From IMG/VR virus record IMGVR_UViG_3300008885_000050: 64,000 bases of DNA; one strand, written 5' to 3'. The notes under the pieces were generated by a model, which saw only the letters and a program-made list of their open reading frames with translations, was not told where the DNA came from and did not search any database. This document shows, piece after piece, positions 2,235-25,950 of this stretch (position 1 is its first letter; the number at the start of each line of letters is the position of its first letter). Source of the DNA: an uncultured virus (IMG/VR IMGVR_UViG_3300008885_000050) (lineage: Duplodnaviria; Heunggongvirae; Uroviricota; Caudoviricetes). The position numbers and the translations under genes were made by a program.

Positions 2235-2473
2235 GGTCGCACCGCACGCGCCAGATGTCCGGCATAGACGCTGACAGCTTTCCAGTATGCCGCCATCGGC
2301 GCCTTGTGGCGGCGCCAGCTGTCTTCGGCACGCTGCCGCGCGTCTAGCGACACTTCACGAAGAACATCCGCCAACGCAATCCGCTCTTCTGGCGATCGCC
2401 GGCAAAGGCGTTGCACCGAAGGGAGCGCCAACATCGGATTGCGGACTTCTGGTGATGACGAGCGGTCAGCCAC
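2231..2473 (-). CDS. Hypothetical phage protein
   Basis: GTG start overlapping the thyX stop; ends overlapping the next ATG. Confidence 0.6.
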   Translation of the reverse strand: MADRSSSPEVRNPMLALPSVQRLCRRSPEERIALADVLREVSLDARQRAEDSWRRHKAPMAAYWKAVSVYAGHLARAVRP

Positions 2474-3137
2474 GCCCTGCCTCCCATGCCCCGATGCACA
2501 CTGGCGCCACGGCGCGCGCGAGATCCCGCATCGCTTCCCCGTAAACGCGGATCTCGTATTGGGCATGCGGATCGAGCCGGAGATCGAGGAAGCCTAGCAG
2601 GTTGCGGAGATCGACCTTAGCGAACATGTGGCTGTAGGTTGCCACCGGCAGCACCGATCGGGCGAGCTCACGAGGAACACCGCGCGCCAGCAGGTCACGA
2701 TAGATGCCGAATGCCGCCTCACCGCAAAGCTTGATCATGCCGGCCGCGACGTGATCGGCCTTTCCGATATCGCGTGCCTGCTTGCTGCTCGTCGACTGGG
2801 TGCCGATCAGCGCCGGATCGGGCACATAGAATTCCTCCGGCAATTCCCGATACCGCGCCGACAGTTCGTTGAACGACCAGGTCCTGTGGCGATGCCACTG
2901 CCGGAAGACAAAGATCGGCGCCTTGACCTCGAACTGGAACTCGACGGCTTCGAACGGCGAGGTGTGCCGATTCTTCCACAGGTACCGGATCAGACGGGCA
3001 TCGCTGCCTTCGTCTTCGCCGGCGCGCCATGCGGCGTCATAGCTGACACGCGCGGCACGCGTGACCGATAGGTCCGATCCCATATGGTCGACGAGACGGA
3101 CGAAGCCGTGATCAAGGACATCAATTTTATTTTCCAT
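2466..3137 (-). CDS. thyX: Flavin-dependent thymidylate synthase
   Basis: RHRTWSFNELSARY ThyX motif, HTSPFE, RELARSVLP, HAQYEIR. Confidence 0.97.
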   Translation of the reverse strand: MENKIDVLDHGFVRLVDHMGSDLSVTRAARVSYDAAWRAGEDEGSDARLIRYLWKNRHTSPFEAVEFQFEVKAPIFVFRQWHRHRTWSFNELSARYRELPEEFYVPDPALIGTQSTSSKQARDIGKADHVAAGMIKLCGEAAFGIYRDLLARGVPRELARSVLPVATYSHMFAKVDLRNLLGFLDLRLDPHAQYEIRVYGEAMRDLARAVAPVCIGAWEAGRG

Positions 3138-8394: not shown

Positions 8395-9600
8395 CTATTC
8401 CTCCTCCTCGACCGAACCCGGCTCCAACCCTTCGGCGTCCTCCTCGGCGGCGAAGCCATCAAGCCACGCCTGCCGTTCGGCCTCCCTGCCCTCGGCCTTG
8501 AAGTCGACCGGAACGGCCTTCTTGCTCATGTTGCGACGGTAGGCGGCGCGCCCCATGCGGGTTGCCTTCGCGATAGGATCGCCGTCGTCCGGCTGGGTTT
8601 GGGGGGACTTGCCGGACGACGGCTTCTGCCCGGTAGCAGCCTGGGGGGCGGCCTGCTTGCCGGAGGCATCGGAACCGGCAGGAGAAGGACCGGTTTCCGA
8701 TTTCTGAATTTCCTCTTCTGCCGGTTTGTCACCGGCGGTGGATGGTTGGTCTTTCGCCTCTGCCAGCTTTTCCAACTTGCCCTTCAGATCGGCGGGCTGT
8801 TCGGCTTTCGGCTTGGCGATCGGGAACATTTCCTCGACGGTGGCTTCACCGCTGCGCAGCGCTTGGTGCATGCCAACGAGAGTCGTGTATTCATCGAGGC
8901 CGATGTCATCGAGGCCTTTGATTTCGAGCACCGCGAAGATCCGCTCCGGAGAGACGCCGAACGCCGCAAAGGCTTTCATGGCGTCTTCGCGCTTCTGCAC
9001 CATCGTGGTGACGTCACCGACAATGACGCGCTCGACTTCGCCGTACGCCTTGCGCCAGACCGCCTTGGGAACCCCGGCCAGGATGGCGTTGCGCTTCGCG
9101 ATGGAGGCCGCCGCATTGCCGGTCACGATGATCATGTCGTCGTTGTAGAGCCTGCCTTTGCTGTCCACGATGCGCCGGCGCACGCGCGAGGTCGTCGCCG
9201 AGTTCGTCTCGAGGTCGTGGAAGACGCCTTCGGCCTCGACGTACTTCTCGATTCTGTCGACATGCACGACACGCGTTCCGACGCGATTGTTGCCCCAACT
9301 ATTTTGGATGATTTCGGCGAGCCGGATCGACGGTCCCTTGATCGCTTTGCCGCCGCGCGGAAGCGCGTAGACGCATTCCTTCGCGGTTTCCTCGTCGAGC
9401 GTCGCAAGCGTCAGGATATTCTTGACGGCGAGATCGACGCTGCGCGGATAGGCGTGTGCCGTCGTGATCTGCTGGTCGACCTCGGCCATGGCGATCGAGA
9501 CCGCTAGGCTTTGGTTGCCGCTCTGATAGCCGACAGGCAACCCGGCCATCACTTCCCCTGTTTCCGGATCGACGGTCTCGGTCTTGGCAACGGTGTTCAT
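8395..9600 (-). CDS. Putative recombination/ssDNA-annealing partner of YqaJ with an RMF-like C-terminal motif
   Basis: Directly downstream of YqaJ; AGGAG RBS; globular N-domain, low-complexity linker, C-terminal G..A...P...RQAWLDGF. Confidence 0.6.
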   Translation of the reverse strand: MNTVAKTETVDPETGEVMAGLPVGYQSGNQSLAVSIAMAEVDQQITTAHAYPRSVDLAVKNILTLATLDEETAKECVYALPRGGKAIKGPSIRLAEIIQNSWGNNRVGTRVVHVDRIEKYVEAEGVFHDLETNSATTSRVRRRIVDSKGRLYNDDMIIVTGNAAASIAKRNAILAGVPKAVWRKAYGEVERVIVGDVTTMVQKREDAMKAFAAFGVSPERIFAVLEIKGLDDIGLDEYTTLVGMHQALRSGEATVEEMFPIAKPKAEQPADLKGKLEKLAEAKDQPSTAGDKPAEEEIQKSETGPSPAGSDASGKQAAPQAATGQKPSSGKSPQTQPDDGDPIAKATRMGRAAYRRNMSKKAVPVDFKAEGREAERQAWLDGFAAEEDAEGLEPGSVEEEE

Positions 9601-12245: not shown

Positions 12246-12296
12246 AACTTAAGCCCCACTTATTTTTCAGTCAAGCTGAATTATCAGTCCCACTGA
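12246..12296 (-). promoter_or_regulatory. PL promoter with three operators (OL)
   Basis: TTGACT(12274-12269)-N17-TAAGTT(12251-12246); 13-bp dyads TAAGCcccACTTA (12250), TCAGTcaaGCTGA (12267), TCAGTcccACTGA (12284). Confidence 0.85.
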
Positions 12297-12362
12297 AATT
12301 TCTCGACGAGGTAACCTGCCTCGCGCGCGACAGCGCCAAGCCAAGAATCGTAACGCGCGACA

Positions 12363-12390
12363 CAAAAGGGTGCGTCAGCACCCTATTTTG
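12363..12390 (-). terminator. Intrinsic terminator-like hairpin
   Basis: AGGGTGC-TGAC-GCACCCT followed by TTTG on the - strand; also T-tailed on the + strand. Confidence 0.65.
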
Positions 12391-12395
12391 AATCC

Positions 12396-12442
12396 TAGCG
12401 GGACACGGAATCGTTGCAGGTTAGCGGGACACGGAATCGTTG
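12396..12442. repeat. Two exact 21-bp direct repeats TAGCGGGACACGGAATCGTTG
   Basis: Copies at 12396-12416 and 12422-12442. Confidence 0.95.
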
Positions 12443-12597
12443 AGCTCAATCTGAAACGGTGAATCGTAGAGCTCTATGATCTAAGGTTAGTTTTAATCTC
12501 CAACCGAGCGCGGAGGCGCGCGCGGATAAACCGCGCGCTTGGCGCTTGTCAACACCGTTGCCTTAAATCCCGTAAGGGGAGAAACAGCCTGGCAAGG

Positions 12598-12879
12598 TCA
12601 CTTCTGTGATCGCCGCTTTGCCGGGTTTTTCGCCAGCATTTGCACCGCCGCGCTAATCGCTTCTACGAGATCGGCCTGGTCGGCTTCGCTCATCCCAGCG
12701 AGAAGCGGTCGGAATATCTCCGCGATTCGAGTGAATGCGTCCGACTCGAAAGATCGCTCCAGCCTATCGTTTATCTCTTTGTTCAAGCTTCGCGATCCGC
12801 GTGCGCCTTCCAGCTTCTCTTTCAAGCCAGGGAAGAAGCGGACATGGAAGCTCGGCGGCTCAGACTGGGACATGCCCAC
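12598..12879 (-). CDS. Arc-like ribbon-helix-helix DNA-binding protein
   Basis: SFHVRFFPGLKEKLEGARGSRSLNKEINDRLERSF. Confidence 0.85.
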   Translation of the reverse strand: MGMSQSEPPSFHVRFFPGLKEKLEGARGSRSLNKEINDRLERSFESDAFTRIAEIFRPLLAGMSEADQADLVEAISAAVQMLAKNPAKRRSQK

Positions 12880-13108: not shown

Positions 13109-13318
13109 ATGATCCATTACATGCCGCATGAGAAGACGCGGCGGGCGGAAACACTAGCGAAATTATTGGGATCAAGCTCTTGCCCAATGACAGATCCGGC
13201 GATGCGGATCGAGCGCGATGCGGCCTCAATCGCTAGCGCGATGGCGATGATACACGGCGGGCAGTGGCGGATTCAGATCGATCATCAGCTTGGCTATGTT
13301 GTCGTGAAGCAGTGTTGA
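13109..13318 (+). CDS. Small protein convergent with and overlapping the cI 3' end
   Basis: GGGGAC RBS, TTGACA at 13055 upstream, plausible globular sequence. Confidence 0.5.
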   Translation: MIHYMPHEKTRRAETLAKLLGSSSCPMTDPAMRIERDAASIASAMAMIHGGQWRIQIDHQLGYVVVKQC

Positions 13319-13670
13319 AGCTGATGTCCTTAAGTATGACATCGTAGAGAAAGGCGACGTCCTTCTCTGACAAGCCATCAATACGCTGCAACGTCGCCAG
13401 GATTTGTTGCTCGCCACGGATCGGCGCCTTGGAGGCTTCGATCTTGTCAGGGGCCCACAAAAGCAGATCGCCTGGTCTGCAGTCCAACGCCTTCGCGATT
13501 GCGACCAATGTCGAATCGGTAAACCCCTGTTTGCCGTTCTCGAGCTGGGAAATGGATGACGCGGTCAGGCCAACCATCTCAGCAAGCATCTCTTGATTCA
13601 ACCCGCGCTGTTTCCGCCACTCGCGGAAATAGTAGGTCGGTTGCGCTCCGTTTGCATGTTTGTCTGCCAT
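13233..13670 (-). CDS. cI: CI-like repressor (XRE HTH, no S24 peptidase domain)
   Basis: FREWRKQRGLNQEMLAEMVGLTASSISQLENGKQ; divergent from cro; start could alternatively be 13706. Confidence 0.88.
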   Translation of the reverse strand: MADKHANGAQPTYYFREWRKQRGLNQEMLAEMVGLTASSISQLENGKQGFTDSTLVAIAKALDCRPGDLLLWAPDKIEASKAPIRGEQQILATLQRIDGLSEKDVAFLYDVILKDISFNTASRQHSQADDRSESATARRVSSPSR

Positions 13671-13706
13671 GCTGAAGTTATCGCGCATCCGATAAGTTGG
13701 CTCCAT

Positions 13707-13757
13707 TCGATCCCACTGACAAAATCAGCTTGACTTAATTTCAGTGGGGCTTAAGTT
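13707..13757 (+). promoter_or_regulatory. PR promoter with three operators (OR)
   Basis: TTGACT(13730)-N16-TAAGTT(13752); dyads TCGATcccACTGA (13707), TCAGCttgACTTA (13725), TCAGTgggGCTTA (13741), same consensus as OL. Confidence 0.85.
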
Positions 13758-13764
13758 GCCGTCC

Positions 13765-14013
13765 ATGGAAAAGCTGATTGCCTATCTCGATGAGGAACGT
13801 GGTCGCCGCAACAAGCTGGCCGCCGCGCTTGGGATTGGCCCGGGTGCAATCTCGCAGTGGGAGAAGGTTCCCGCAGAACGTCTCGGAGATATCTCCCGGT
13901 TCACCGGCATCGCGGTTGAGGAGCTTCGGCCCGACATTTTTGCGAAAGCCGTTCGCGGAAGCGGCGATCACGCGGCGGGCGCAGCAGAGCGGCCCGCGGG
14001 CGCGGCGGCCTAA
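13765..14013 (+). CDS. cro: Cro/YdaS-like repressor
   Basis: KLAAALGIGPGAISQWEKVPAER...EELRPDIF. Confidence 0.9.
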   Translation: MEKLIAYLDEERGRRNKLAAALGIGPGAISQWEKVPAERLGDISRFTGIAVEELRPDIFAKAVRGSGDHAAGAAERPAGAAA

Positions 14014-14259: not shown

Positions 14260-14775
14260 ATGAACAGAAACGCGGACTTGGAAACTTCGAGCGCAAGCTT
14301 GGAAAAACTTACCAAGGCCCACGGCGGGCCGAAGGTGGGCGGTGGTATCATGTCTAGCGTTGCCATCGCCATTTCTGCCGAAGACCGCGCACCTCGCGAT
14401 GTCATCCGTGCTGTCGGGGAGTTGTTGCTCCCCAAGACGCCAGCCCGTCGGCAATATGGCAAGATCTATACGGAACTACTGAAACGGGTGCCGCCGGCGT
14501 TTACCAAAAAGGTGACGCCGCGCCGTGTCCGGGCGATCTACAACGATGACGCGCGGCGCGTCGAATGGTACGAGATGAAGGCGCTACTCGAGATCGAGGC
14601 GCTGGAGGAGGCTAGACGTGCAAGGCTCAAACTCGCCGCCACGGCCAACCGTCTGGCAGCGCTTATTGCCGCTGAAGACGCGGCTCTGGATGGCGAAGAA
14701 CGTCGCGAATTGGGGCGACTCGCTGGCGCATTGGATCGCGCCGGAATCAAAGCCGACAGCGGAGGCGCTCTATGA
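14260..14775 (+). CDS. Regulatory protein in the CII position
   Basis: GAGGGA RBS; TPRRVRAIY...ARRVEWYEM helix motif followed by coiled coil. Confidence 0.6.
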   Translation: MNRNADLETSSASLEKLTKAHGGPKVGGGIMSSVAIAISAEDRAPRDVIRAVGELLLPKTPARRQYGKIYTELLKRVPPAFTKKVTPRRVRAIYNDDARRVEWYEMKALLEIEALEEARRARLKLAATANRLAALIAAEDAALDGEERRELGRLAGALDRAGIKADSGGAL

Positions 14776-15368
14776 GCGATCTCCCAGACTGGAAGACGAT
14801 CAATCCGGCTGAGCGCGACCGCCTGCTCGCCGGCTATTGCAACGACGGACTGACCGCCCAGAAGATCGCCGACAAGTTCCAGAACTGCAGCCGGTCGGCC
14901 GTCATCGGTCGCATCCACCGGCTCAAGCTCCAGCTGAACAACGGCGCGCCTCGCAAGAGTGCCGGACGTCGTCCGAAGGCGTCTGTCGAGGCTAAGCCGA
15001 AGGCGCCGGCCGTCCGCAAGGTCTCAAAGCTCGTCAAGGATACCAGTTCCTGGCGCGGCGCCAACAACCCGCCGGCGACGGATTTCAAAGCGCGCGCCCT
15101 GCAGCGGGCGGCATCTCCCGGCATCGTCATCAAGCGTGAAAACGCCTTCGATCCGATCCCCGACACGACGCCGATCTCTCTGATGGACCTCAACTCGACC
15201 ACGTGCCGATGGATGGTCAATGGCGTCTCCGGCCATGGCGACCTGTACTGCGGCCAACCCAAAGAGGTCGAGCACAGTTATTGCGCCTGCCACCGCGCCA
15301 TCGCGCATCAGCCCGCACACGAACGCCGTCGAGCCGAGACCAGATCGGCAGAGAGGAATTTCGCATGA
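14772..15368 (+). CDS. gcrA: GcrA-family cell-cycle regulator homologue
   Basis: GLTAQKIA...SRSAVIGRIHRLKL N-domain; LMDL..TTCRW...YCG...YC..H...AHQP C-domain. Confidence 0.9.
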   Translation: MSDLPDWKTINPAERDRLLAGYCNDGLTAQKIADKFQNCSRSAVIGRIHRLKLQLNNGAPRKSAGRRPKASVEAKPKAPAVRKVSKLVKDTSSWRGANNPPATDFKARALQRAASPGIVIKRENAFDPIPDTTPISLMDLNSTTCRWMVNGVSGHGDLYCGQPKEVEHSYCACHRAIAHQPAHERRRAETRSAERNFA

Positions 15369-15787
15369 CGAAGATTTTGGAACGGCCGAATCGCGCGACG
15401 CCGGATGAGATGGCGACGTTCGTCGACCAGTTCGAGGAGCTGGAGAACGAGATCGCCAGCGAACGCGGCATCTTCATGTCGAAATGCAAGGCAATCCGTG
15501 AGCGTCAGCGAGAACTTCTTGACGATGCAAAATCGCAGGGTTTGCCCAAGAACGTGGTGAAGGCCGTTGTCCGCGCCCGCGAGCTCGAAGCGAAGGCATC
15601 CGCCGTGCTCGACGGTCTCGAAGACGATGCTGTCCAGGTCTTCAAAGATATTCGCGAGGCGCTCGGCGATTTCGCTGACAGCCCGCTCGGCGCAGCGGCC
15701 GTCAAAGCCGAAGGCGAGCAGGATCCGGCAACCGCCGCGATCGTGAAGGCCGCGAAAGACTGGGACGAGTCCGCGCCTAAGCACTGA
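15365..15787 (+). CDS. GapR/DUF2312-like nucleoid-associated protein
   Basis: FVDQFEELENE...DAKSQGLPKNVVKAVVRAR...ALGDFADSPLG resembles GapR (FIERIERLEEE...EAKGxGFDxKxxRxxxRxR); GAGGAA RBS. Confidence 0.7.
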   Translation: MTKILERPNRATPDEMATFVDQFEELENEIASERGIFMSKCKAIRERQRELLDDAKSQGLPKNVVKAVVRARELEAKASAVLDGLEDDAVQVFKDIREALGDFADSPLGAAAVKAEGEQDPATAAIVKAAKDWDESAPKH

Positions 15788-15849
15788 TTTTTCGATTGCA
15801 ATGACCTGTGGCCGCCAGTGCGGCCGACTCCATCCTGTGGTTCGTACCA

Positions 15850-16521
15850 ATGAAGCGCATCGATCTTTCAGGTCAGTCGTTTGGCCGCCTTCGCGTGGTC
15901 GGTCCCGTCAGCTTGATCAAACGGCGGCTACGCTGGAATTGCATCTGTGACTGCGGACAGGAATGTGTGATTGCTGGAGATGGCCTGCGAAATGGCAAAA
16001 CGACTTCTTGCGGCTGTATCCAACGCAGGGGCGCCGGCAACACCACCCATGGCCTCGGCGTTGGCCGTAGACACCCACTGTCGGGGACGTGGAGCGGGCT
16101 CAAGCAGCGCTGCTACAATCCAAAGGCCAAGCGCTTCAATCGGTATGGTGGGCGCGGCATCACCGTCTGTGATCGCTGGTTGAATGGCGCCGACGGCAAG
16201 CCAGGGTTCCAATGCTTCGTTGAAGACATGGGCCCCAAGCCCACACCCCAGCATTCGATCGAGCGCAAAGACAAAGACGGCAACTACGAGCCCGGCAATT
16301 GCCATTGGGCCTTGGATATCGAGCAGGCCAGGAATCGGCGAACGACGGTTGAGGTTGATCTCGACGGCAAGTCCGTGTCGCTCGCCGAATACTGTGAGCA
16401 CAAGGGCCTTCCCTACAAGATCGTGCATCAGCGGCTATCACGCGGCTGGTCACTGGAAAAGGCTGAGACCTACCCCGTCACTTCATCGCGAAAGTCGTCG
16501 GATGTCGAGGCACGGCCATGA
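15850..16521 (+). CDS. HNH homing endonuclease with C-terminal HTH
   Basis: Same family as 3919..4482 ([34 protein letters not shown]). Confidence 0.9.
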   Translation: MKRIDLSGQSFGRLRVVGPVSLIKRRLRWNCICDCGQECVIAGDGLRNGKTTSCGCIQRRGAGNTTHGLGVGRRHPLSGTWSGLKQRCYNPKAKRFNRYGGRGITVCDRWLNGADGKPGFQCFVEDMGPKPTPQHSIERKDKDGNYEPGNCHWALDIEQARNRRTTVEVDLDGKSVSLAEYCEHKGLPYKIVHQRLSRGWSLEKAETYPVTSSRKSSDVEARP

Positions 16522-17135
16522 CGGCAGTTCGCATCCTGCACCTCGATGCCGCGACTAGGACCGGCTTCGCCTACGGTCCAGCCGGTCAAAAACCGATTTC
16601 TGGCAGTTTCCGTTGCGCGGCGCCGGATGCGTCACAAGGTGCTGTCTTTGCCGGTGCGATGCGGTGGATCACCACTTTCCACGCCAGCCACCCGATCGAC
16701 GTTCTCGGCATCGAGGCGTCCGCAGCAGGTAGCAACGTTGCCGGCAAGACCACGCTCCGGACTTCGGAAATTCTCAACGGATTGCCAGCCTGCTTCATCG
16801 GCATGGCATTCCTGCTTGGTATTTACGAGGCCAAGCGCGTCGCGGTCTCTTCGATCCGTGCTCATTTCATCGGTGCCGGCAATCTGAAAGGCGAGATCGC
16901 CAAGCCCCGCGTGCTGGAAAAGTGCCGGGCTCTCGGTTGGATCGACAAGGGCGACCAGGATCAATCATTTGACCGGTCAGACGCTCTGGCCGGCTGGTCC
17001 TATTGCGAATGGTTCTACGCCGCCAAGCAGTCCCAGCCTGTGAACGATCTGTTCGTGGCGGCTCAGCGTCGCCAACGCGAGGCCGAGGAGCTCAGCCGCC
17101 GATACACCCCCACTCAAATTCCGGAGAGGTTCTGA
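16518..17135 (+). CDS. RuvC-like Holliday junction resolvase
   Basis: ILHLDAATRTGFA, LGIEA, DRSDALA. Confidence 0.8.
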   Translation: MTAVRILHLDAATRTGFAYGPAGQKPISGSFRCAAPDASQGAVFAGAMRWITTFHASHPIDVLGIEASAAGSNVAGKTTLRTSEILNGLPACFIGMAFLLGIYEAKRVAVSSIRAHFIGAGNLKGEIAKPRVLEKCRALGWIDKGDQDQSFDRSDALAGWSYCEWFYAAKQSQPVNDLFVAAQRRQREAEELSRRYTPTQIPERF

Positions 17136-17461
17136 TGCACTGGACACCTTACCGAGGCCAACTCGTTTGCTGCATCGATGACACGCCTACCAACGCCTTT
17201 GGTGTCGTCGAGCTGGTTCGCGGCCGTGTCTACACTGTGCGCGAGGTCGTCGAACCGGATGAACTGATCGCCTTCTTCCTTGGCGGAGATCCCAACGAGC
17301 CGAGCGTCATGCTGGACGAGGTGCGGAGACCGTTGGAAGACGCGGAATATGGCGAGGTCCCGTTCAGGGTTTCCCGCTTCCAACCGATCGACCCCGAACG
17401 GATCGAGATCTTCCGCAGCATGCTCAATCCCGTCACTCGCCGTCGTGGGGTGCCGGCATGA
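17135..17461 (+). CDS. Hypothetical protein
   Basis: GAGAGG RBS, TGATG-coupled start MHWTPY. Confidence 0.7.
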   Translation: MHWTPYRGQLVCCIDDTPTNAFGVVELVRGRVYTVREVVEPDELIAFFLGGDPNEPSVMLDEVRRPLEDAEYGEVPFRVSRFQPIDPERIEIFRSMLNPVTRRRGVPA

Positions 17462-17817
17462 GCGCCCGCCCAGCCATGGGCCGCGTTCGCGGCTATCATT
17501 CGTTCAGCAAAGCGGTCTCGATCGGCCTGCTTCTCGCCGCCGTCGCCTTCGTCATCTTCGTTCTCTGCGGTGGCGCCCGGGCGGCGGCCGTCTGTATGCC
17601 GTGGGCGGACCTCAAACCGCGCGTCGCCAAGGCCTGGCATGAATTCCCCATCGATGTCGGCGTCATCAACGCCCAGACCGTGGTCGAGATCATGGCCTCG
17701 CCGGATGGTGCAACCTTCACGGTCGTTATCGTTGATGCCGCCGGCAGGGCGTGTGCCATCCTCTCCGGCACCGGATGGGAAGGCGTCGAACCAACCAAAT
17801 CGGGGACGCCAGGATAA
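17458..17817 (+). CDS. Predicted exported/membrane-anchored protein
   Basis: Hydrophobic N-terminus plus AxA, two Cys in the mature part. Confidence 0.65.
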   Translation: MSARPAMGRVRGYHSFSKAVSIGLLLAAVAFVIFVLCGGARAAAVCMPWADLKPRVAKAWHEFPIDVGVINAQTVVEIMASPDGATFTVVIVDAAGRACAILSGTGWEGVEPTKSGTPG

Positions 17818-18539
17818 TGCGCGTCATCGTCTCCGCCCCATCTCGTGAGTCCGAACGTGAGCTGCGCGCCGCAGCCGAGGCTGCAGGCTTCGAATCCGCC
17901 GGCGAGACGCTCCCACAGGATCTCTGCAGCGCGCTGTATCGCGATCCGGATGCGATCGGCGTCATCCGAGCCGCGAACAGCGGCTATGCGGCGGTGACGT
18001 GCCGGAACTTCCGAACGGCAGACGTCAAGAACGTGCTGTTCGTGCTGCTCGACGACGGCATGTGGGATGGCGGCTACGCGGCGACGATCCTTAAATGCGG
18101 AGCCGATGACGTCCAGCCGGCGCCGATCCATACCGCCGAGTTCATTGCCAGGCTGAAGGCGCTGGCCCGGCGCGGTGCCTACAACGACCATCTCTTCATC
18201 AAGATGCCGGGCTGCGTGTTCGATGCGGAGACCGGCAACGCCGAAAATGAGAGCGGGAAGCAGCATTTGAGCGGGCTTGAAGCCCGACTCCTGACCGCCC
18301 TCGCGATCGATCCATCCAAGATCTACTCGAAGGACGATCTGATGGACCACCTCTACGGCGGCGAAGACGAGCCCGATAAGAAGATCGTCGACGTCATGGT
18401 CTGCAAGCTTCGCGCCAAGCTGCTCGAAATGAACGATGGCCTCGATGTGGTGCGCACGGTGTGGGGTCGAGGCTATCAGTTCGAACCCAAGGGCTTCACG
18501 CCAGATTACCGCTATGGGCGGGTCAGGCGGGCGCGATGA
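17817..18539 (+). CDS. CtrA-derived OmpR-family regulator with degenerate receiver domain
   Basis: HLYGGEDEPDKKIVDVMVCKLRAKL...TVWGRGY closely matches the CtrA effector domain; GADD..P.H..E.IAR in receiver; TAATG-coupled start. Confidence 0.88.
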   Translation: MRVIVSAPSRESERELRAAAEAAGFESAGETLPQDLCSALYRDPDAIGVIRAANSGYAAVTCRNFRTADVKNVLFVLLDDGMWDGGYAATILKCGADDVQPAPIHTAEFIARLKALARRGAYNDHLFIKMPGCVFDAETGNAENESGKQHLSGLEARLLTALAIDPSKIYSKDDLMDHLYGGEDEPDKKIVDVMVCKLRAKLLEMNDGLDVVRTVWGRGYQFEPKGFTPDYRYGRVRRAR

Positions 18540-19012
18540 GGCCGATCCGCGACACCCTCGCCGAGTGTCTCCGCCGCGAGCGCTACGGCCTCATCCGCCC
18601 ATTATGGGCCGACCTGGTCGGCTTCGACGACGACACCGCGGAGGAGGTCCGCCGGCGGGCCGACCATCTCATGCGGCTGCTTTCGGACTATGGCGTCCAG
18701 CTGGTGCAGACCGGCGAGCCCGCGCCGATCGCCACACCAACGAGCCCGACGATCATCGCGAATGCCGTGTTCGGCGCCCACGGCGTCGAGCGCTCCGTCT
18801 GCGTCGCCGATGTCGGTTTCTCCATTGTCGCGACCAAAGACGGCCAGTCGACCGTCGAGCAGACCTTCACCCTGAACGAGGTCATGCTGAACGCTGGCCT
18901 CGTCCTGGCCGACGATCCCGCCGCGAAGACGATCAAGGGCCTCGGCCGACAGCTTGCCGCTGCGACCGAGGTGTACCGCCTCAACGCCGCCGGCATGGGT
19001 GGCGGCAAATGA
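18536..19012 (+). CDS. Hypothetical protein
   Basis: MRPIRDTL start with ATGA overlap. Confidence 0.65.
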   Translation: MRPIRDTLAECLRRERYGLIRPLWADLVGFDDDTAEEVRRRADHLMRLLSDYGVQLVQTGEPAPIATPTSPTIIANAVFGAHGVERSVCVADVGFSIVATKDGQSTVEQTFTLNEVMLNAGLVLADDPAAKTIKGLGRQLAAATEVYRLNAAGMGGGK

Positions 19013-19206
19013 CGGGCCCGCTTTCCACCGCCAGCCGGCAGCTCGAGGAGCTCGTCGACGTCACCGCAGACTGGACGAGCGAGCTACTGCGGCGCCTTGC
19101 CGACGAGATGGCGCATGCGCTCGATCAGGCTGCCATGCGCGATGTCGAAGGTCCAACGGAATGGCGACTTCTATGCGCCCGTAGATCTACAGCGGGTGAC
19201 GCATGA
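19009..19206 (+). CDS. Hypothetical protein
   Basis: MTGPLSTAS, ATGA overlaps at both ends. Confidence 0.55.
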   Translation: MTGPLSTASRQLEELVDVTADWTSELLRRLADEMAHALDQAAMRDVEGPTEWRLLCARRSTAGDA

Positions 19207-21815
19207 ACATGCAGAGCGATCCCTATCTCGACTTCCTCCGAAGCAAGATGCAGTTGGCCAAGGCTGACGGCTTCGACGTTGCCGTCGACGATATCAACCC
19301 GGCCGGCGCGCCGCATTGCCGCGCCATCGTGCGTTGGGCGCTGAAGGGCGGCAGCCGCGCCATTTTCGCATCGTTCGGCCTGCACAAGACCTTCATGCAG
19401 ATCGAGCTCATGCGCTTGGTCGGCAAGTTCGCGCCGGGCCTGCGATTGATCGTCATTCCGCTCGGCGTCCGGCACGAATTCTTCGCCGAGGCGGCGGAGC
19501 GGTTCCAGGGCGAATGCGGCGTGACGCTGAAGTTCATCCGCTCCGACAGTGAGATCGACGGCGACGGCACGATCTACCTGACCAACTACGAGAGCGTGCT
19601 TGCCGGCAAAATCGACGCCTCGCGCTTCGTCGCCGCCAGCCTCGACGAGGCGGCGGTGCTGCGCGGCTACGGCACGAAGACGTTTCAGACGTTCCTGCCG
19701 CTCTTCAAGGCGGTGCGCTTCAAGTTCGTCGCAACAGCGACGCCGTCGCCAAACCGCACCAAGGAACTGATCCACTATGCCGGCTTCCTCGGCATCATGG
19801 ACACCGGCCAGGCGCTGACGAGGTTCTTCCAGCGCAATTCCGAGAGCGCCGGCGACCTGACACTCTTCCCGCACAAGGAAGATGAGTTCTGGCTCTGGGT
19901 GCACAGCTGGGCCGTGTTCCTGCAATCGCCGGCCGACCTCGGCTTTCCCGATGACGGATATGTGCTGCCGCCGGTCAAGGTGAACTGGCATGAGGTGCCG
20001 ATCGACCACTCGACGGCCGGCTATGATCGCGACGGCCAGGGGCTGCTGATCCGCAACACTGCGCTCGGCGTGACGCAAGCGAGCGCGGCCAAGCGCGACA
20101 GTCTGTCAGCCCGCATCGGCAAGATGGTCGAACTGATCGCCGAGGATCCTGATGCACACCGTATCCTCTGGCACGACCTCGAGGACGAGCGCCGGGCGAT
20201 CGAGGCGGCCGTGCCTGGCGTGCGCTCGATTTATGGCACGCAAGGGCTGGAGGCCAACGAACGCAACGCCATTGGCTTCAAGGATGGCCAGTTCCGAGAT
20301 CTCGCGACGAAACCGGAGATGTCGGGTGCCGGCAACAATTTCCAGAAGCATTGCCACTGGGCGATCTTCGTCGGCGTTGGTTTCAAGTTCCACGACTTCA
20401 TCCAGGCGGTGCACCGGATCGTGCGTTTCGGCCAGGCGCATGAGTGCCGGATCGACATCATTTTCTCGGAAGCCGAGCGCGAAGTGCGTCGCAGCTTGGA
20501 GCGCAAATGGGCCGAGCATGAGCGGCTGATGGCGCGCATGGCGGAGATCATCCGCCGCTATGGCCTCGACGGCCTACCGCTCGACGACGTGCTGTCGCGC
20601 TCGATCGGGGTGCGCCGGCGTGAGGAGCGCGGCGATGGCTTCGTCATTGCGCACAACGACGCCGTGCTCGAGGCGCGCCAGACCGCCAGCGAAAGCGTCG
20701 GCGAGATCGTCACGTCGATTCCGTTCGCCAACCACTATGAGTACACGGCGAGCTATAACGACTTCGGCCATACCGACGACAACGCCCACTTCTGGGCCCA
20801 GATGGATTTCCTGACGCCGGAACTGCTGCGCATCCTGCAGCCCGGCCGGCTGGCCTGCATCCATGTGAAAGACAGGGTTCTGTTCGGCAGCGTGACCGGC
20901 GAAGGCGTGCCGACGGTCTCACCGTTCCATGCCGAGGCGATCTTCCACTATCTAAAGCACGGGTTTCAGTACATCGGCATGATCACCATCGCCACGGATG
21001 TGGTGAAGGAAAACAACCAGACCTATCGTCTCACCTATTCCGAGATGATGAAGGACGCCACGAAGATGGGCGTCGGCTGTCCGGAATATGTGCTGCTGTT
21101 CCGCCGGCCGCAGAGCGATCTTTCACGCGGATATGCCGACGAACCGGTGACGCATGCCAAGCCGCTGGTGATTGCCGGCGACGGCCGGCACGAGCGTTGG
21201 AGCGACGGCGACAGGCGTCCGCAGGTGCCCGACAGCGGCTATACGCTGGCGCGCTGGCAGCTCGACGCGCATGCCTTCTGGCCGTCATCGGGCGACCGGC
21301 TGCTGACCACGGATGAACTGGTGCGGCTCGGACCGAAGCCGCTGCGCGCGCTGTTTCAGAAGGTGTTCGAGGGCGCGATCTACGATTTCGAGGCGCATGT
21401 GCGGCTGGGCGAGGAACTGGCGGCGCGCGACAGTTTGTCGAAAACTTATATGACGCTGGATCCGCCATCCAAGCATCCCGCGGTCTGGTCGGACGTCGTG
21501 CGAATGCTGACGCTCAACGGCCAGCAGGCGTTCCGCAATCTGGAGAAGCATGTCTGCCCGATGCAGTTCGACATCGTCGACCGGCTGATCGAGCGGTACA
21601 GCAACCCGGGCGACGTCATCTATGACCCGTTCGGCGGTCTGATGACCGTGCCATATCGCGCCATCCTGAAGGGCCGACGCGGACAGGCCTCCGAACTCTC
21701 CGAAACCTACTTTCGTGACGGCGCCCGCTATTGCCGCGAGGCCGAAGCCAAGCGCGCCATTCCAACCATGTTCGACATGCTGGGCATCGGCCAGGACCTG
21801 GAGCAAGCAGGATGA
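19203..21815 (+). CDS. SNF2-like helicase / amino-DNA methyltransferase fusion
   Basis: GLHKT, DEAA, TATPSPN, QAVHRIVRFGQ; MTase motif IV TSIPF and motif I YDPFGGLMT (beta order). Confidence 0.88.
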   Translation: MNMQSDPYLDFLRSKMQLAKADGFDVAVDDINPAGAPHCRAIVRWALKGGSRAIFASFGLHKTFMQIELMRLVGKFAPGLRLIVIPLGVRHEFFAEAAERFQGECGVTLKFIRSDSEIDGDGTIYLTNYESVLAGKIDASRFVAASLDEAAVLRGYGTKTFQTFLPLFKAVRFKFVATATPSPNRTKELIHYAGFLGIMDTGQALTRFFQRNSESAGDLTLFPHKEDEFWLWVHSWAVFLQSPADLGFPDDGYVLPPVKVNWHEVPIDHSTAGYDRDGQGLLIRNTALGVTQASAAKRDSLSARIGKMVELIAEDPDAHRILWHDLEDERRAIEAAVPGVRSIYGTQGLEANERNAIGFKDGQFRDLATKPEMSGAGNNFQKHCHWAIFVGVGFKFHDFIQAVHRIVRFGQAHECRIDIIFSEAEREVRRSLERKWAEHERLMARMAEIIRRYGLDGLPLDDVLSRSIGVRRREERGDGFVIAHNDAVLEARQTASESVGEIVTSIPFANHYEYTASYNDFGHTDDNAHFWAQMDFLTPELLRILQPGRLACIHVKDRVLFGSVTGEGVPTVSPFHAEAIFHYLKHGFQYIGMITIATDVVKENNQTYRLTYSEMMKDATKMGVGCPEYVLLFRRPQSDLSRGYADEPVTHAKPLVIAGDGRHERWSDGDRRPQVPDSGYTLARWQLDAHAFWPSSGDRLLTTDELVRLGPKPLRALFQKVFEGAIYDFEAHVRLGEELAARDSLSKTYMTLDPPSKHPAVWSDVVRMLTLNGQQAFRNLEKHVCPMQFDIVDRLIERYSNPGDVIYDPFGGLMTVPYRAILKGRRGQASELSETYFRDGARYCREAEAKRAIPTMFDMLGIGQDLEQAG

Positions 21816-22063: not shown

Positions 22064-22890
22064 GACGCGGTCGCATCGACTACAGCGCCGACGAGATGGC
22101 CTGGTTAGAGGCAAACCGCTTGTTGGTCATCAGCGACTATCATCGCGCCTTCGTTGCTGCTTTTGAGCGCGATGACGTCACCGCTGCCCATCTCCACGGT
22201 CTTCGGAAGCGGTTGGGCTGGAAGGTCGGCCGCGCGCCCGGACGCCTCAAGGGCCGTCGCCTGAAATACAGCGATGCCGAAATCGCATGGCTGCGCGAAA
22301 ACTGCACGATGGAGGTCAACGCATGGTGCGCCGCCTTCCGCGCGAAGTTCGGGCGAGATGACGTCACTCCGGCAAAACTGCACAGCATGCGGAAGAACGA
22401 GGGGTGGAAGACAGGACGAACGGGCCAATTCGCCAAGGGCGCGGTGCCGTGGACTAAAGGCAAGAAGCTGCCCTTCAATCCCAATTCGGCCAAGACACAG
22501 TTCAAGAAGGGGCAGCTGCCGCACAACCACCGTGGCGCCGGCCATGAGTCGATCGACGGCTTTGGCTATGTCTGGATCATCATTGACCAGACCAACCCCT
22601 GGACCGGCGCCGCCACCTGCCGCGTTCACAAGCATCGTTGGCTTTGGGAACAGGTCAACGGCCCAGTACCGGACGGCATGGTGCTGAAATGCCTTGGCGA
22701 AAAGTCGAACTCTGATCCGTCGAACTGGGAGCTCGTGCCGATCGGGCTGCTGCCGCGTCTGAACGGCAAGTCCAACCGCGACTTTGACCACGCCCCAGCT
22801 GAACTGAAGCCGATCATCATGACCGTGGCGAAGCTCGAGCACGCCGTCGCGACGCGCCGCAAATCCAAATCAGAAAGGACCTCGACATGA
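22060..22890 (+). CDS. HNH_3-type endonuclease-like protein (possibly degenerate)
   Basis: Two N-terminal repeats (YS..E.AWL), FKKGQLPHN, HRWLWEQVNGPVP...N.DPSNW. Confidence 0.75.
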   Translation: MRRGRIDYSADEMAWLEANRLLVISDYHRAFVAAFERDDVTAAHLHGLRKRLGWKVGRAPGRLKGRRLKYSDAEIAWLRENCTMEVNAWCAAFRAKFGRDDVTPAKLHSMRKNEGWKTGRTGQFAKGAVPWTKGKKLPFNPNSAKTQFKKGQLPHNHRGAGHESIDGFGYVWIIIDQTNPWTGAATCRVHKHRWLWEQVNGPVPDGMVLKCLGEKSNSDPSNWELVPIGLLPRLNGKSNRDFDHAPAELKPIIMTVAKLEHAVATRRKSKSERTST

Positions 22891-24731
22891 TCACCATCAG
22901 CACAACGGTCGCGCTCGCCGACATCGAGCCCGATGAAAGCATCAACGCCAGGCGCACCCGCACCGATGAGGGCATCTATGAGTTGAAGGCCTCGATCCGT
23001 GCGCACGGTCTCATCCAGGCTCTGCGTGTCCGTCACGCCGACGGCCCGACGGCCAAGATTATTGCAGGCCACCGCCGCCATCGCGTGCTTTGCGAACTGG
23101 CGGCTGATGGCGACAGCGCCGGCGGCGTCGTGGTGACGCCTTCGTTCCCGGTACCCGTCATTTTCGGTGATGTCGACGACACCGCCGCGCGCGAGATCAG
23201 CCAGGCGGAAAACCTGATCCGGCTTCCGCAACATGAAGCCGACACCTATGAGACGTTCCGAGATCTCGCCGATCGCGGTCTCGACCAGCATCAGATCGCG
23301 GCGCGGTTCGGTATCGATCCGAAGCGAGTCACCCGAATGCTGGCACTCGGCCGACTGTCACCGGTGATCCTCGATGCATGGCGCTCCGGTTCTTTCGATG
23401 AGCGCGGAAGCGCCGCTACGATTGTCCGCGCCTTCACGCTGGCACCCTCGATCGAGGATCAGGAGCGCGTCCTCAACAAGCTGATCAAGGACCGCAACCT
23501 TCACGCCGGCGCCATCTTGGCGGCATTCGGAGGCAATGATCACGAGGCCGCCAGGAACATCAAGATCGCCGGGCTGGACGCCTATCGTGCCGCCGGCGGT
23601 GAGGTCACCCAGGATCTCTTCGGCGACAACCACATCATTGCCGACAAGGCCCTGGCGAAGCGGGTTGCCGACGAGAAGATCGCAGCCACTATCGCCGGCC
23701 TGAAAGCGGAGGGCTGGTCTTGGGTCAGCCTCGGCGCCGACCTCGGCTATTACTGGGAACATGGTTGGAAGCGCGAAAAGCCCGGCGACGGCAAGGCAAC
23801 GGCCGACGAGAAGAAGCAGATCAAGAATCTGAAGAAGCTGGCCGCTAAAGATAATGTAGTCGCTGCCGGACACCTCAATGACCTCTACAAGACGATCGCC
23901 GATCGGCAATGGTCGCCCGAGCAACTCGGCATAGCCGGCGCCGTCGTGAAGATCGGCCATCACGGCGACCTCGAGGTCATTCGCGGCGTCGTGAAACCGC
24001 AGGCCGAGAAGAAGGCCTCGTCGTCGTCTGGCGCGCCGAAGGAGAAAGGTCCACCAACGATCTCGAATGCGCTGCATGAGCGTCTGAGCGCGCAGGCCAC
24101 CCTCGCAACGCGGCAGGCCCTCAAGCAGGAGCCGCATATCGGTCTCGTCGCATTGCTGGCCGGATTCATGACGCATCGGCGCATGCATGCCGACAGCCCG
24201 GTCCGCGTCTACCACGAAGGCTTTGGCAAGACGCACAGCGACGAGAAGGAAAGCTTCGCGTCCGTCTTCTCCCGTCTCATGGAGATGACAGACGCCGAAC
24301 TGTTCCTGGTCGCAGCAGGATGCGCCGGCGAGGCCGTTCACATGGAGCGGCATCATATCGGGAAGCCACCATTCGATTCCAACTCGGCTCCGCTCGCCGC
24401 CGCGATAGACGCCGAACACATGACCGCTGCGCTGCAGGAGACCTTCGACGCCGCCGACTACTTCGACGGGGCATCGAAGCCGTTCGTGATCCAGGCCATT
24501 CGCGAAGCCATCAACGAGGATGAGGCTCGCCGGGCCGACAAGATGAAGAAGGCCGAGCTCGTCGCTTTCGCGCTTGCCAACGTGCCGCAGACCGGCTGGC
24601 TGCCGCCAGAGTTGCGGGCGCCGACCTATGGCGGCCCAGGCGCGATACCGACCTTCGCGACGACAGACCCAGCGCAGCACGATCCCGACTTCGACGAGGA
24701 AACCGAAGAAGAACTCGACCGGGTTGCCTGA
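22887..24731 (+). CDS. Large ParB/Srx-domain protein
   Basis: LKASIRAHGLIQAL, IIAGHRRHR, AENLIR, followed by HTH. Confidence 0.88.
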   Translation: MITISTTVALADIEPDESINARRTRTDEGIYELKASIRAHGLIQALRVRHADGPTAKIIAGHRRHRVLCELAADGDSAGGVVVTPSFPVPVIFGDVDDTAAREISQAENLIRLPQHEADTYETFRDLADRGLDQHQIAARFGIDPKRVTRMLALGRLSPVILDAWRSGSFDERGSAATIVRAFTLAPSIEDQERVLNKLIKDRNLHAGAILAAFGGNDHEAARNIKIAGLDAYRAAGGEVTQDLFGDNHIIADKALAKRVADEKIAATIAGLKAEGWSWVSLGADLGYYWEHGWKREKPGDGKATADEKKQIKNLKKLAAKDNVVAAGHLNDLYKTIADRQWSPEQLGIAGAVVKIGHHGDLEVIRGVVKPQAEKKASSSSGAPKEKGPPTISNALHERLSAQATLATRQALKQEPHIGLVALLAGFMTHRRMHADSPVRVYHEGFGKTHSDEKESFASVFSRLMEMTDAELFLVAAGCAGEAVHMERHHIGKPPFDSNSAPLAAAIDAEHMTAALQETFDAADYFDGASKPFVIQAIREAINEDEARRADKMKKAELVAFALANVPQTGWLPPELRAPTYGGPGAIPTFATTDPAQHDPDFDEETEEELDRVA

Positions 24732-24735
24732 TCAC

Positions 24736-25950
24736 ATGAGGCAACCAACCCTTTTCGATGGCTCAAAACGCCTGGTATACGACGAGGCCGTGGATCTCAC
24801 GCTGCAGTCCATGCAAGCTTACGGTCCAGCGCACGATCATTGGGGAATCGCATGGTCCGGGGGGAAAGACAGCTCAGCTACCCTGACCCTCATCGTCCAC
24901 CTGCTTGACACCGGGCGCCTCGCGCGGCCGAAGAGCCTTACCGTCTTCTATGCCGATACTCGGCAAGAACTTCCACCACTGGCGATCGCTGCGTCAAGCA
25001 TCATGCTGCAGCTCCATGCGCGAGGTATCCGCTGCGAGGTCGTCACTGCTCCGCTCGACAAGCGTTTCCTCGTCTACATGCTTGGTCGCGGCGTCCCCCC
25101 GCCGAACAATAGAACCTTTCGTTGGTGCACCAGGCAGATCAAAGTCGACCCGATGGCCGATGCAATCGCCGCGCGCCTCGAAGAGCTAAACGGCAATGTG
25201 CTGATGATCACCGGCGTCCGCGAAGGCGAAAGTGCCATACGCGACGAACGCATTCGAATGTCCTGCGGCAAGGATGGAGCAGAGTGCGGCCAGGGCTGGT
25301 ACCAGGAGGTTCTACCTCAGTCGAAGGGAGTTCGCGGTCGCATTGCCACGCTGGCGCCTCTGCTGCACTGGCGGGTTTGCAACGTCTGGGACTGGCTGCG
25401 GATCTACGCTCCGATGCCAGCTTATGGCGGCTGGGAAACGTCGGCGATCGCAGACGCCTATGGCGGCGATGAGGCGGAGGAAGCCAACGCCCGAACAGGC
25501 TGCATCGGCTGCCCGCTCGCCAGCAAGGAAATGGCGCTCGAGACGATCCTGGCGATGCCCGCATGGTCCTATCTCGCTCCGCTGCGCGACCTGAAGCCGA
25601 TTTACCGCGAACTCAGGGAGGACGACAGCAAGCGGTTGAAAAAGACCGGCATCGACGACGACGGCACCCTGTCTTTGGGAAAGAACAAGCAGCGTAAGGG
25701 TCCCCTGACCTTCGAAGCCAGGCTGGATGCGCTGGATCGTATCATTGCAATCCAGGGGGCATGCAATGCCGCCGCTCGATCTCTCAACCGGCCAACTATC
25801 GACATACTCAATCGCGAAGAGGAGGAACGCATCCGCGAACTGGTAGCAGCCGAGACCTGGCCTAACGGCTGGGATGGCGATGAGCCCACCGCCGATACTC
25901 CGATGGACACGATCTTCAGGGACGGCTCCGTTCAGCCGTTGCTGGTGTAG
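24736..25950 (+). CDS. PAPS-reductase family protein (DndC-like)
   Basis: SGGKDSS PP-loop, GRGVPPPN..FRWCT..IKVDP, GVREGES..R, RTGCIGCPL. Confidence 0.88.
   Translation: MRQPTLFDGSKRLVYDEAVDLTLQSMQAYGPAHDHWGIAWSGGKDSSATLTLIVHLLDTGRLARPKSLTVFYADTRQELPPLAIAASSIMLQLHARGIRCEVVTAPLDKRFLVYMLGRGVPPPNNRTFRWCTRQIKVDPMADAIAARLEELNGNVLMITGVREGESAIRDERIRMSCGKDGAECGQGWYQEVLPQSKGVRGRIATLAPLLHWRVCNVWDWLRIYAPMPAYGGWETSAIADAYGGDEAEEANARTGCIGCPLASKEMALETILAMPAWSYLAPLRDLKPIYRELREDDSKRLKKTGIDDDGTLSLGKNKQRKGPLTFEARLDALDRIIAIQGACNAAARSLNRPTIDILNREEEERIRELVAAETWPNGWDGDEPTADTPMDTIFRDGSVQPLLV

Follow-up and report, generated by a model that had tools for sequence, protein, structure and literature searches.

Several links between mobile DNA and the cell-cycle circuits built on CtrA and on GcrA/CcrM have been described. 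Phage homologues of GcrA, all members of PF07750, are phiCbK gp222 (PMC3556154), Atu_ph08 gp5 (PMC6630229) and those of five phiLM21-like prophages (PMC12429752), and the suggestion has been made that these proteins increase host replication functions; in Atu_ph08, a GapR match is present as well. GapR/DUF2312 proteins (6JYK, 6CFX; PMC6853979) have phage relatives of the DsbA-like type, and a CtrA-like recognition helix is found in Roseobacter phage RDJL Phi 1 (in which the gene is annotated as ctrA) and in Rhodobacter RcPutin-like phages. Mobile DNA also responds to these circuits, as host CtrA acts on phage promoters (Mascolo et al. 2022, PMC9437464) and repABC promoters are read by GcrA (PMC13687562). 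Here, we describe the uncultured virus IMGVR_UViG_3300008885_000050, of which a stretch of 64,000 nucleotides (the window) was analysed. This temperate Mesorhizobium-type phage genome (~64 kb) carries homologues of all three regulators in its early operon:

14772-15368, plus strand, two-domain GcrA homologue (PF07750; profile match to 7YE1)
15365-15787, plus strand, divergent GapR/DUF2312 homologue (PF10073; profile-profile match)
17817-18539, plus strand, CtrA-derived atypical response regulator (receiver fold without the aspartate, and CtrA-type winged helix)

The three genes had been assigned in a preliminary description made from the sequence alone, and hidden Markov model searches bore the assignments out, with matches to PF07750, PF10073 and NF045991; its statement that single phage copies are known also held, as the GcrA, GapR and CtrA types each occur singly in phages. 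The CtrA copy shares with host CtrA (NF045991; PMC4433202, PMC9437464) the receiver fold, the OmpR-type winged helix, the GADD motif, α5 and the recognition-helix motif, but lacks the acidic pair, phospho-aspartate, Ser/Thr and Lys of the active site and has a family-specific LYRDPD motif and a basic tail. Like atypical response regulators with aspartate-less receivers (as defined in PMC12632262), such as ChxR and HP1043, it is of the OmpR type without a phosphorylation site, but it is phage-borne and derived from an essential host cell-cycle regulator. The GcrA copy, unlike those in the available text of the reports on phage GcrAs, is coupled to a GapR-like gene and then to a CtrA derivative. 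The GapR copy has the long helix, AK.G turn and second helix of GapR/DUF2312 and DsbA-like proteins but belongs to a divergent subfamily distinguished by an inserted segment and an acidic tail. The matches to RDJL Phi 1 and RcPutin cover the DNA-binding domain only. In RcPutin (gp60-gp59; L280:3360-4231), GapR lies directly upstream of a gene in which DUF6456 replaces the receiver in front of a CtrA-type winged helix, a helix matched by 21 Rhodobacter phage records, and the gene upstream is not GcrA. Unlike the CtrA-sensing phages and the repABC promoters, the window phage encodes the regulators and has no strong CtrA site.

Among 41 NCBIfam families, the CtrA copy is best matched by CtrA (NF045991, 98.6 bits; MtrA was second with 72.1 bits), although the score misses the equivalog cut-off of 350 bits. 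All five active-site residues (the acidic pair, phospho-Asp, Ser/Thr and Lys) are lost, their positions being occupied by P, S, I or R, L, and A, whereas all five are kept in 76 of 76 host ctrA copies, which were taken as controls from among the matches listed in a genome collection, all of them host ctrA loci. Asp or Glu occurs at positions 49-52 in none of the 51 rows of the family alignment, and at position 53 in nine. By its sequence, the CtrA copy is an aspartate-less pseudo-receiver as defined in PMC12632262, a feature that the preliminary description had overlooked. This supports the view that the protein is freed from the host phosphorelay, which would fit a takeover role. At 90% identity, the family comprises 54 clusters in which no receiver match was obtained (roughly 40 clusters at 50%), and it includes named close relatives from Mesorhizobium, Aminobacter and Aquamicrobium; the cultured phage records searched contained no full-length relative. 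One viral locus, L100, has the same GcrA, GapR, RuvC and CtrA order but an intact CtrA, suggesting that the CtrA slot once held a true ctrA.

The rest of the protein is well preserved. The structure, predicted with confidence (predicted local distance difference test score, 88.8), contains a full receiver of five strands and five helices followed by the winged helix, and Foldseek matched the model to OmpR/PhoB proteins. Conservation in the family is highest in regions 95-120 (0.79) and 176-201 (0.76) and is about 0.5 elsewhere. Receivers of the OmpR family dimerise via the α4-β5-α5 face, and the residues G95, D97, D98, Q100, E108 and R119, all invariant across the 51 rows, fall on this face. 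Also invariant are Y180, K189, V193, K197 and R199 of the recognition helix and R42, which is specific to the phage family. A CtrA-type recognition helix is present, 17 of the 25 residues at positions 176-200 being identical to the host CtrA reference. The copy ends in a basic tail (RRAR in the window), whereas host copies mostly end in Ala or Val. Because of this tail and because CtrA of Sinorhizobium meliloti is stabilised when its last three residues are removed (PMC4433202), escape from proteolysis is plausible by analogy.

CtrA copies in other phages were surveyed in the best 80 of 204 viral loci. Outside the family, 26 full-length receivers could be counted at position 51 (one frameshifted locus was left out, and some of the Asp51 copies were not checked for phage context): the residues were Asp (11 copies), Glu (6), Asn (4), Ala (2), and Gly, Val or Ser (3 together). 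Glu51 was thus present in 6/26 full-length viral copies versus 0/76 host copies. The six D51E copies (L099, L103, L106, L113, L114 and L124; CtrA gene at about 8700-9600 in the full-length loci) are near-intact CtrAs, with D8 changed in all, and each adjoins phage genes for a DNA polymerase, resolvase, helicase or integrase. Their grouping as one clade was rejected by the approximately unbiased test (p 0.003; quick tree with positions 7-9 and 51 removed, the group having been named after an earlier tree was seen), indicating at least two origins. D51E is the phosphomimetic allele used in Caulobacter and Rhodobacter (PMC12186491, PMC6363796). Winged-helix-only matches were found in many other viral loci and in cultured Roseobacter and Rhodobacter phages. 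Eight further contigs (L129, L131, L133, L137, L138, L139, L141 and L144, at about 9000) contain only the 3' part of ctrA, share a start just before the recognition helix, and mostly have it near a contig end; they look like prophage attachment inside ctrA, with an integrase alongside in one of the eight.

The GcrA copy matches PF07750 with an E-value of 1.1e-22 (81.5 bits; cut-off, 26.9), and its alignment profile matches both domains of the solved GcrA 7YE1 (E-value, 1.4e-33), although it scores below the NF050816 equivalog cut-off (48.7 versus 280 bits). When compared with the N6-methyladenine-reading residues and the CCCH zinc finger described in PMC5887438, the finger and the equivalents of R33, I37, G38, H41 and R42 are kept, whereas N34 is replaced by Ser, Y151 by His, and the F130 equivalent is also changed. 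The background rate of GcrA in phages was taken from 14 of 80 GapR loci and five tblastn records. GcrAs of about 440 amino acids with two N-terminal helical units and a long low-complexity linker are encoded at L096:6025-7359 and L098:5989-7293.

The GapR copy is a marginal PF10073 match (E-value, 8.1e-6; 25.8 versus 22.6 bits; profile positions 3-56 of 72). The profile-profile comparison with canonical phage GapRs gave a probability of 94.8 over 56 columns, and 6JYK ranked first in the fold search (Z 6.9, root mean square deviation 5.8, 77 aligned residues), with unrelated helices close behind (6.5). Eleven inserted residues and a C-terminal extension of acidic character distinguish the copy, and the divergent subfamily ranges from 140 to 186 amino acids. 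GapR is widespread in alphaproteobacterial phages, with 157 cultured records and at least 600 viral matches.

It is hardly credible that the three genes are decaying relics of captured host DNA. All five active-site residues of the CtrA copy are lost and the GapR score is weak, as such decay could produce, but the reading frames are intact, columns are invariant across the 51 rows of the CtrA family, and the ratio of nonsynonymous to synonymous substitution rates is 0.09-0.36 in all ten whole-gene comparisons of the three genes, which largely refutes this explanation. The ratios are 0.18 and 0.36 for the GcrA copy, 0.19 and 0.22 for the GapR copy, and 0.19-0.24 for the CtrA copy (about 0.2 for its receiver alone). 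The GcrA-, GapR- and CtrA-like genes are all under purifying selection.

We favour, with a confidence that falls a little short of even, the reading that the CtrA copy is an always-on, phosphorelay-proof mimic acting on host promoters alongside the GcrA and GapR copies. Upon induction or infection, the rightward early promoter PR would drive an early operon with three captured host regulators, each plugging separately into a conserved part of the host. The CtrA copy, which by its sequence cannot be phosphorylated, would probably dimerise without a signal through the α4-β5-α5 face and may bind CtrA-type boxes via the kept recognition helix; an always-on CtrA at host promoters would put a hold on division and motility of the host and, by an indirect route, on the timing of its replication. 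The GcrA copy would dock on sigma70, read host-methylated GANTC sites and keep S-phase-type transcription on, and may also act on a phage GANTC element upstream of the leftward early promoter PL (see below). The weakest part of this scheme is that the GapR copy might ease DNA topology in phage replication.

Fifty-five sites located upstream of ctrA in hosts were used to build a CtrA-box matrix. The training sites had a median score of 16.5, and the best score in the window was 11.3; a scan of the 29 family loci revealed no strong site that was consistent among them. Because the phage lacks a strong CtrA box, host promoters are the likelier targets. Two one-mismatch CtrA-like sites at PL and PR were rejected, since the -10 hexamers fall within them and the score at PR is no higher than 6.8. 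In L100, in which CtrA is intact, two CtrA boxes scoring 12.9 and 12.8 lie between cI and cro (L100:828-905), where feedback on the switch is possible.

Several observations weigh against a host-directed mimic. In the quick tree, 23 rows of the phage family form a long-branched clade with 99% support that is not clearly placed inside CtrA. Only 35 of 98 residues of the DNA-binding domain are identical to host CtrA and the recognition helix of L251, L262 and L266 has drifted from the CtrA motif, so that the DNA specificity could be different. The S. meliloti origin is without CtrA motifs and CtrA does not bind there, and CtrA represses minCD in this species (PMC4433202); any effect on host replication would thus be indirect, and the earlier argument that origin firing is blocked by CtrA is not directly transferable to rhizobia. 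As to the D51E copies, the change from Asp to Glu is conservative and needs a single base, and 9 of the 26 copies have other non-Asp residues at position 51 (N, A, G, V or S), so selection for mimicry is suggestive but not proven. Finally, the phage's own DNA is a candidate target, because a conserved non-coding element is present in 16 of 17 loci with all three genes (trio loci) and in none of 12 others.

The nine non-acidic residues would also fit an unlikely alternative, in which the CtrA copy is a dominant-negative decoy: by pairing with host CtrA, or by sitting on its boxes without activation, it would mimic CtrA depletion with blocked division and genome amplification. That the dimer face is the most conserved part of the protein would suit this role, and depletion of CtrA in S. 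meliloti leads to elongation and genome amplification (PMC4433202), a state that would go with the GcrA and GapR copies. On the other hand, six phage copies carry the mimic Glu, and the loop before the recognition helix is largely kept in the copy. In the OmpR-type family, this loop contacts RNA polymerase.

The non-coding element lies upstream of PL, which is a twin of PR:

12246-12274, minus strand, leftward early promoter PL (TTGACT-N17-TAAGTT, identified by eye)
12315-12560, no strand assigned, conserved palindrome-rich non-coding element (~250 bp; possible GcrA-read control region or small RNA)
13730-13757, plus strand, rightward early promoter PR (TTGACT-N16-TAAGTT, identified by eye; linked to PL by inverted repeats)

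Inverted repeats I4, I5 and I7 tie PL to PR, the two regions (12246-12300 and 13706-13757) being near-identical inverted copies with CCCACTGA operator-like boxes common to both; PL was absent from the list given by a consensus promoter scan. A second conserved leftward -35-like hexamer is found at the right end of the element (about 12545-12550), and an Arc-like gene (12598-12879) and a 96-amino-acid open reading frame (ORF) sit between the element and cI.

GANTC is depleted in the window (74 sites versus 146 expected), as in hosts with CcrM. Five sites (12345, 12390, 12408, 12434 and 12461) are clustered in the element within 120 bp, 70-190 bp upstream of PL (P about 0.001 genome-wide and 0.004 locally). 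The GANTC-rich control region of the preliminary description is therefore real as a cluster but is located upstream of PL, with no GANTC sites in the PR region. In Agrobacterium, GcrA acts on repABC promoters rich in GANTC and through a GANTC that lies about 84 bp upstream of a start site (PMC13687562), which makes a link between GcrA and the element plausible by analogy.

These features raise the possibility, which we consider doubtful, that the trio serves the phage programme, that is, consists of domesticated early or middle regulators and a replication aid used mainly on phage DNA such as this element. The distribution of the element (16/17 versus 0/12, with a profile seeded on the window and eight of these loci) argues for such a use, as do the drifted recognition helices in three loci and the strong divergence from host copies. 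Of 17 aligned rows, 14 retain the first GANTC, the N being exchanged between T (8 rows) and A (6 rows), and in 10 rows this site forms the perfect GcrA consensus YGAKTCG. In addition, GapR has a homologue in T4 DsbA, which is predicted to be a phage activator (PMC7824862). Against this, the window element itself has no perfect YGAKTCG, contains no CtrA-type box (best score, about 6.8), and co-occurs equally with the 158-amino-acid ORF downstream of the CtrA copy, so that the link may be one of ancestry; moreover, the host-type recognition motif persists in most members of the CtrA family across about 40% identity. Two of the five GANTC sites belong to a 21-bp direct repeat. The GANTC is frequently missing from the other copies, whereas their CGTAGAG core never varies, and the repeat may thus be the box of another protein. 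In the canonical-GapR loci, the presence of GcrA did not go together with GANTC clustering.

A small RNA at 12455-12577 is weakly hinted at by a single study: in RNA run X18, one contig joins 12577 back to 12455 at a depth of 121.7, versus 2-5 for the other listed contigs, the runs being available as contigs from which level and strand are not readable. The element has no match in Rfam. Consensus folding gave short helices only, and changes affecting both sides of a helix were largely confined to one hairpin. The two strands have similar folding strength (z -3.5 and -3.0), so that RNA structure and DNA palindromes are not told apart.

The setting of the trio is given by the following features:

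1-1032, integrase
13233-13706, minus strand, cI-like repressor (PF01381, E-value 1e-16)
13765-14013, plus strand, Cro-like protein (PF15943, PF14549)
14260-14775, plus strand, 171-amino-acid protein in the cII position (phrog_26665)
15850-16521, plus strand, HNH endonuclease, a variable insert (phrog_374, E-value 4e-65)
16518-17135, plus strand, RuvC-like resolvase (transitive homology only)
17135-17817, plus strand, two small ORFs of 108 and 119 amino acids
18536-19012, plus strand, 158-amino-acid protein, a downstream partner kept in 16 of 17 trio loci
19203-21815, plus strand, SNF2-type helicase fused to an N6/N4 methyltransferase (phrog_16, PF01555), accessory

From 14260 to 19206, stop/start overlaps join most genes, with one 62-bp gap before the HNH gene; the GcrA-, GapR- and CtrA-like genes start with ATG, and most have purine-rich upstream sequence. 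These overlaps, PR and the order following cro bear out the early-operon position proposed previously. The span of 3.8 kb was also correct, but the trio begins ~1.0 kb and ends 4.8 kb after PR rather than within 3.8 kb of it, and four other genes (the HNH gene, the RuvC-like gene and the two small ORFs) are interspersed between the GapR and CtrA copies. The RuvC-like protein had no direct family match in Pfam or PHROG searches, but an iterated profile joins it to proteins of L100 and L120 that match phrog_159. Atlas searches placed the 171- and 158-amino-acid proteins in unnamed clusters only.

Conservation of the cluster was examined in 29 viral loci with a divergent GapR (6 of 35 rows, L274-L279, were dropped because they matched canonical GapR better or only in part). 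All three genes occur in order in 17 of these loci, GcrA and GapR alone in 6 (one being a 6-kb fragment), GapR and CtrA in 1, and GapR alone in 5. The preliminary description had gone further and proposed an integrated module that includes the methyltransferase and the GANTC-rich region. That GcrA, GapR, CtrA, methyltransferase and control region form one co-evolving circuit now appears quite improbable. In its favour are the conserved order and the separate assemblies L100 and L103, the latter of which carries canonical GapR, RusA, GcrA, helicase-methyltransferase (54% identical to that of the window) and D51E CtrA in one run. Furthermore, both partners occur in 4 of 66 CtrA-like loci outside the family versus 1.6 expected (p 0.05, or 0.08 without the eight attachment-site loci; kinship uncorrected). 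However, pairwise-identity correlations within the trio (0.37-0.57) are no tighter than those with neighbours (GcrA-RuvC, 0.55; CtrA-ParB, 0.60), and both partners were found in only 1 of 80 canonical-GapR loci, many of which are truncated. The window GcrA is closest to that of L257 (71%), whose CtrA copy is 39% identical; the alleles of the trio are shuffled, and inheritance is mosaic. In addition, whole-contig searches found no CtrA copy in G053, G055 and G058, which are 97-100% complete and keep the two-domain GcrA and GapR.

Nor is a place for the methyltransferase in such a module supported. CcrM is a stand-alone enzyme with a DPPY-type motif. The window enzyme is an 870-amino-acid helicase fusion with the motif SIPF, features in which it differs from CcrM; its orthologue occurs in 3 of 17 trio loci, and any PF01555 gene in 6 of 17 trio contigs. 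Given the incomplete loci, the shuffled alleles, the CtrA-less relatives and the separate assemblies, the set recurs but is not obligate. These results suggest that the trio is a recurring toolkit in fixed slots, with separately swappable parts, rather than an obligate complex.

The window also encodes a YqaJ recombinase, a primase-helicase, a small terminase, a tail sheath protein and a lysozyme, and the early genes further include those for ThyX (2466-3137), a 614-amino-acid ParB-like protein (22887-24731) and a PAPS-reductase-domain protein (24736-25950). In the tail region, a low-GC gene on the minus strand (60030-61640; 536 amino acids) lacks a Pfam match and encodes a protein that looks membrane-bound; it is a possible lysogenic conversion gene.

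A literature search found no paper on a phage aspartate-less CtrA, a natural D51E or the three-gene cluster, although supplements and most subscription papers lay outside its reach, so that a table-level mention may exist; term look-ups in the available portions of PMC8601537 and PMC13392355 gave nothing relevant. It was already known that phages sense CtrA and that a GcrA or a GapR can be carried singly, and the notable part of the present locus is a CtrA freed from the phosphorelay, together with the repeated arrival of phages at that state. As a tentative proposal, alphaproteobacterial phages may have captured ctrA several times over, freed it from the CckA-ChpT phosphorelay by D51E, by active-site loss with the dimer face kept or by retaining the DNA-binding domain alone, and paired it with GcrA and GapR. 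An induced prophage might then impose a mixed CtrA-on and GcrA-on state that is absent from the host, in which division is held, replication functions run for the phage and host methylation is read by the GANTC element of the prophage.

The endoreduplicated state of rhizobial bacteroids is governed by the level of CtrA. A natural signal-independent CtrA would be a ready-made reagent for asking which surfaces of the protein are needed without phosphorylation. If the proposed reading is true, the widespread phosphorelay-proof phage CtrA and the natural D51E copies would show phages writing to the cell-cycle circuit of their hosts.

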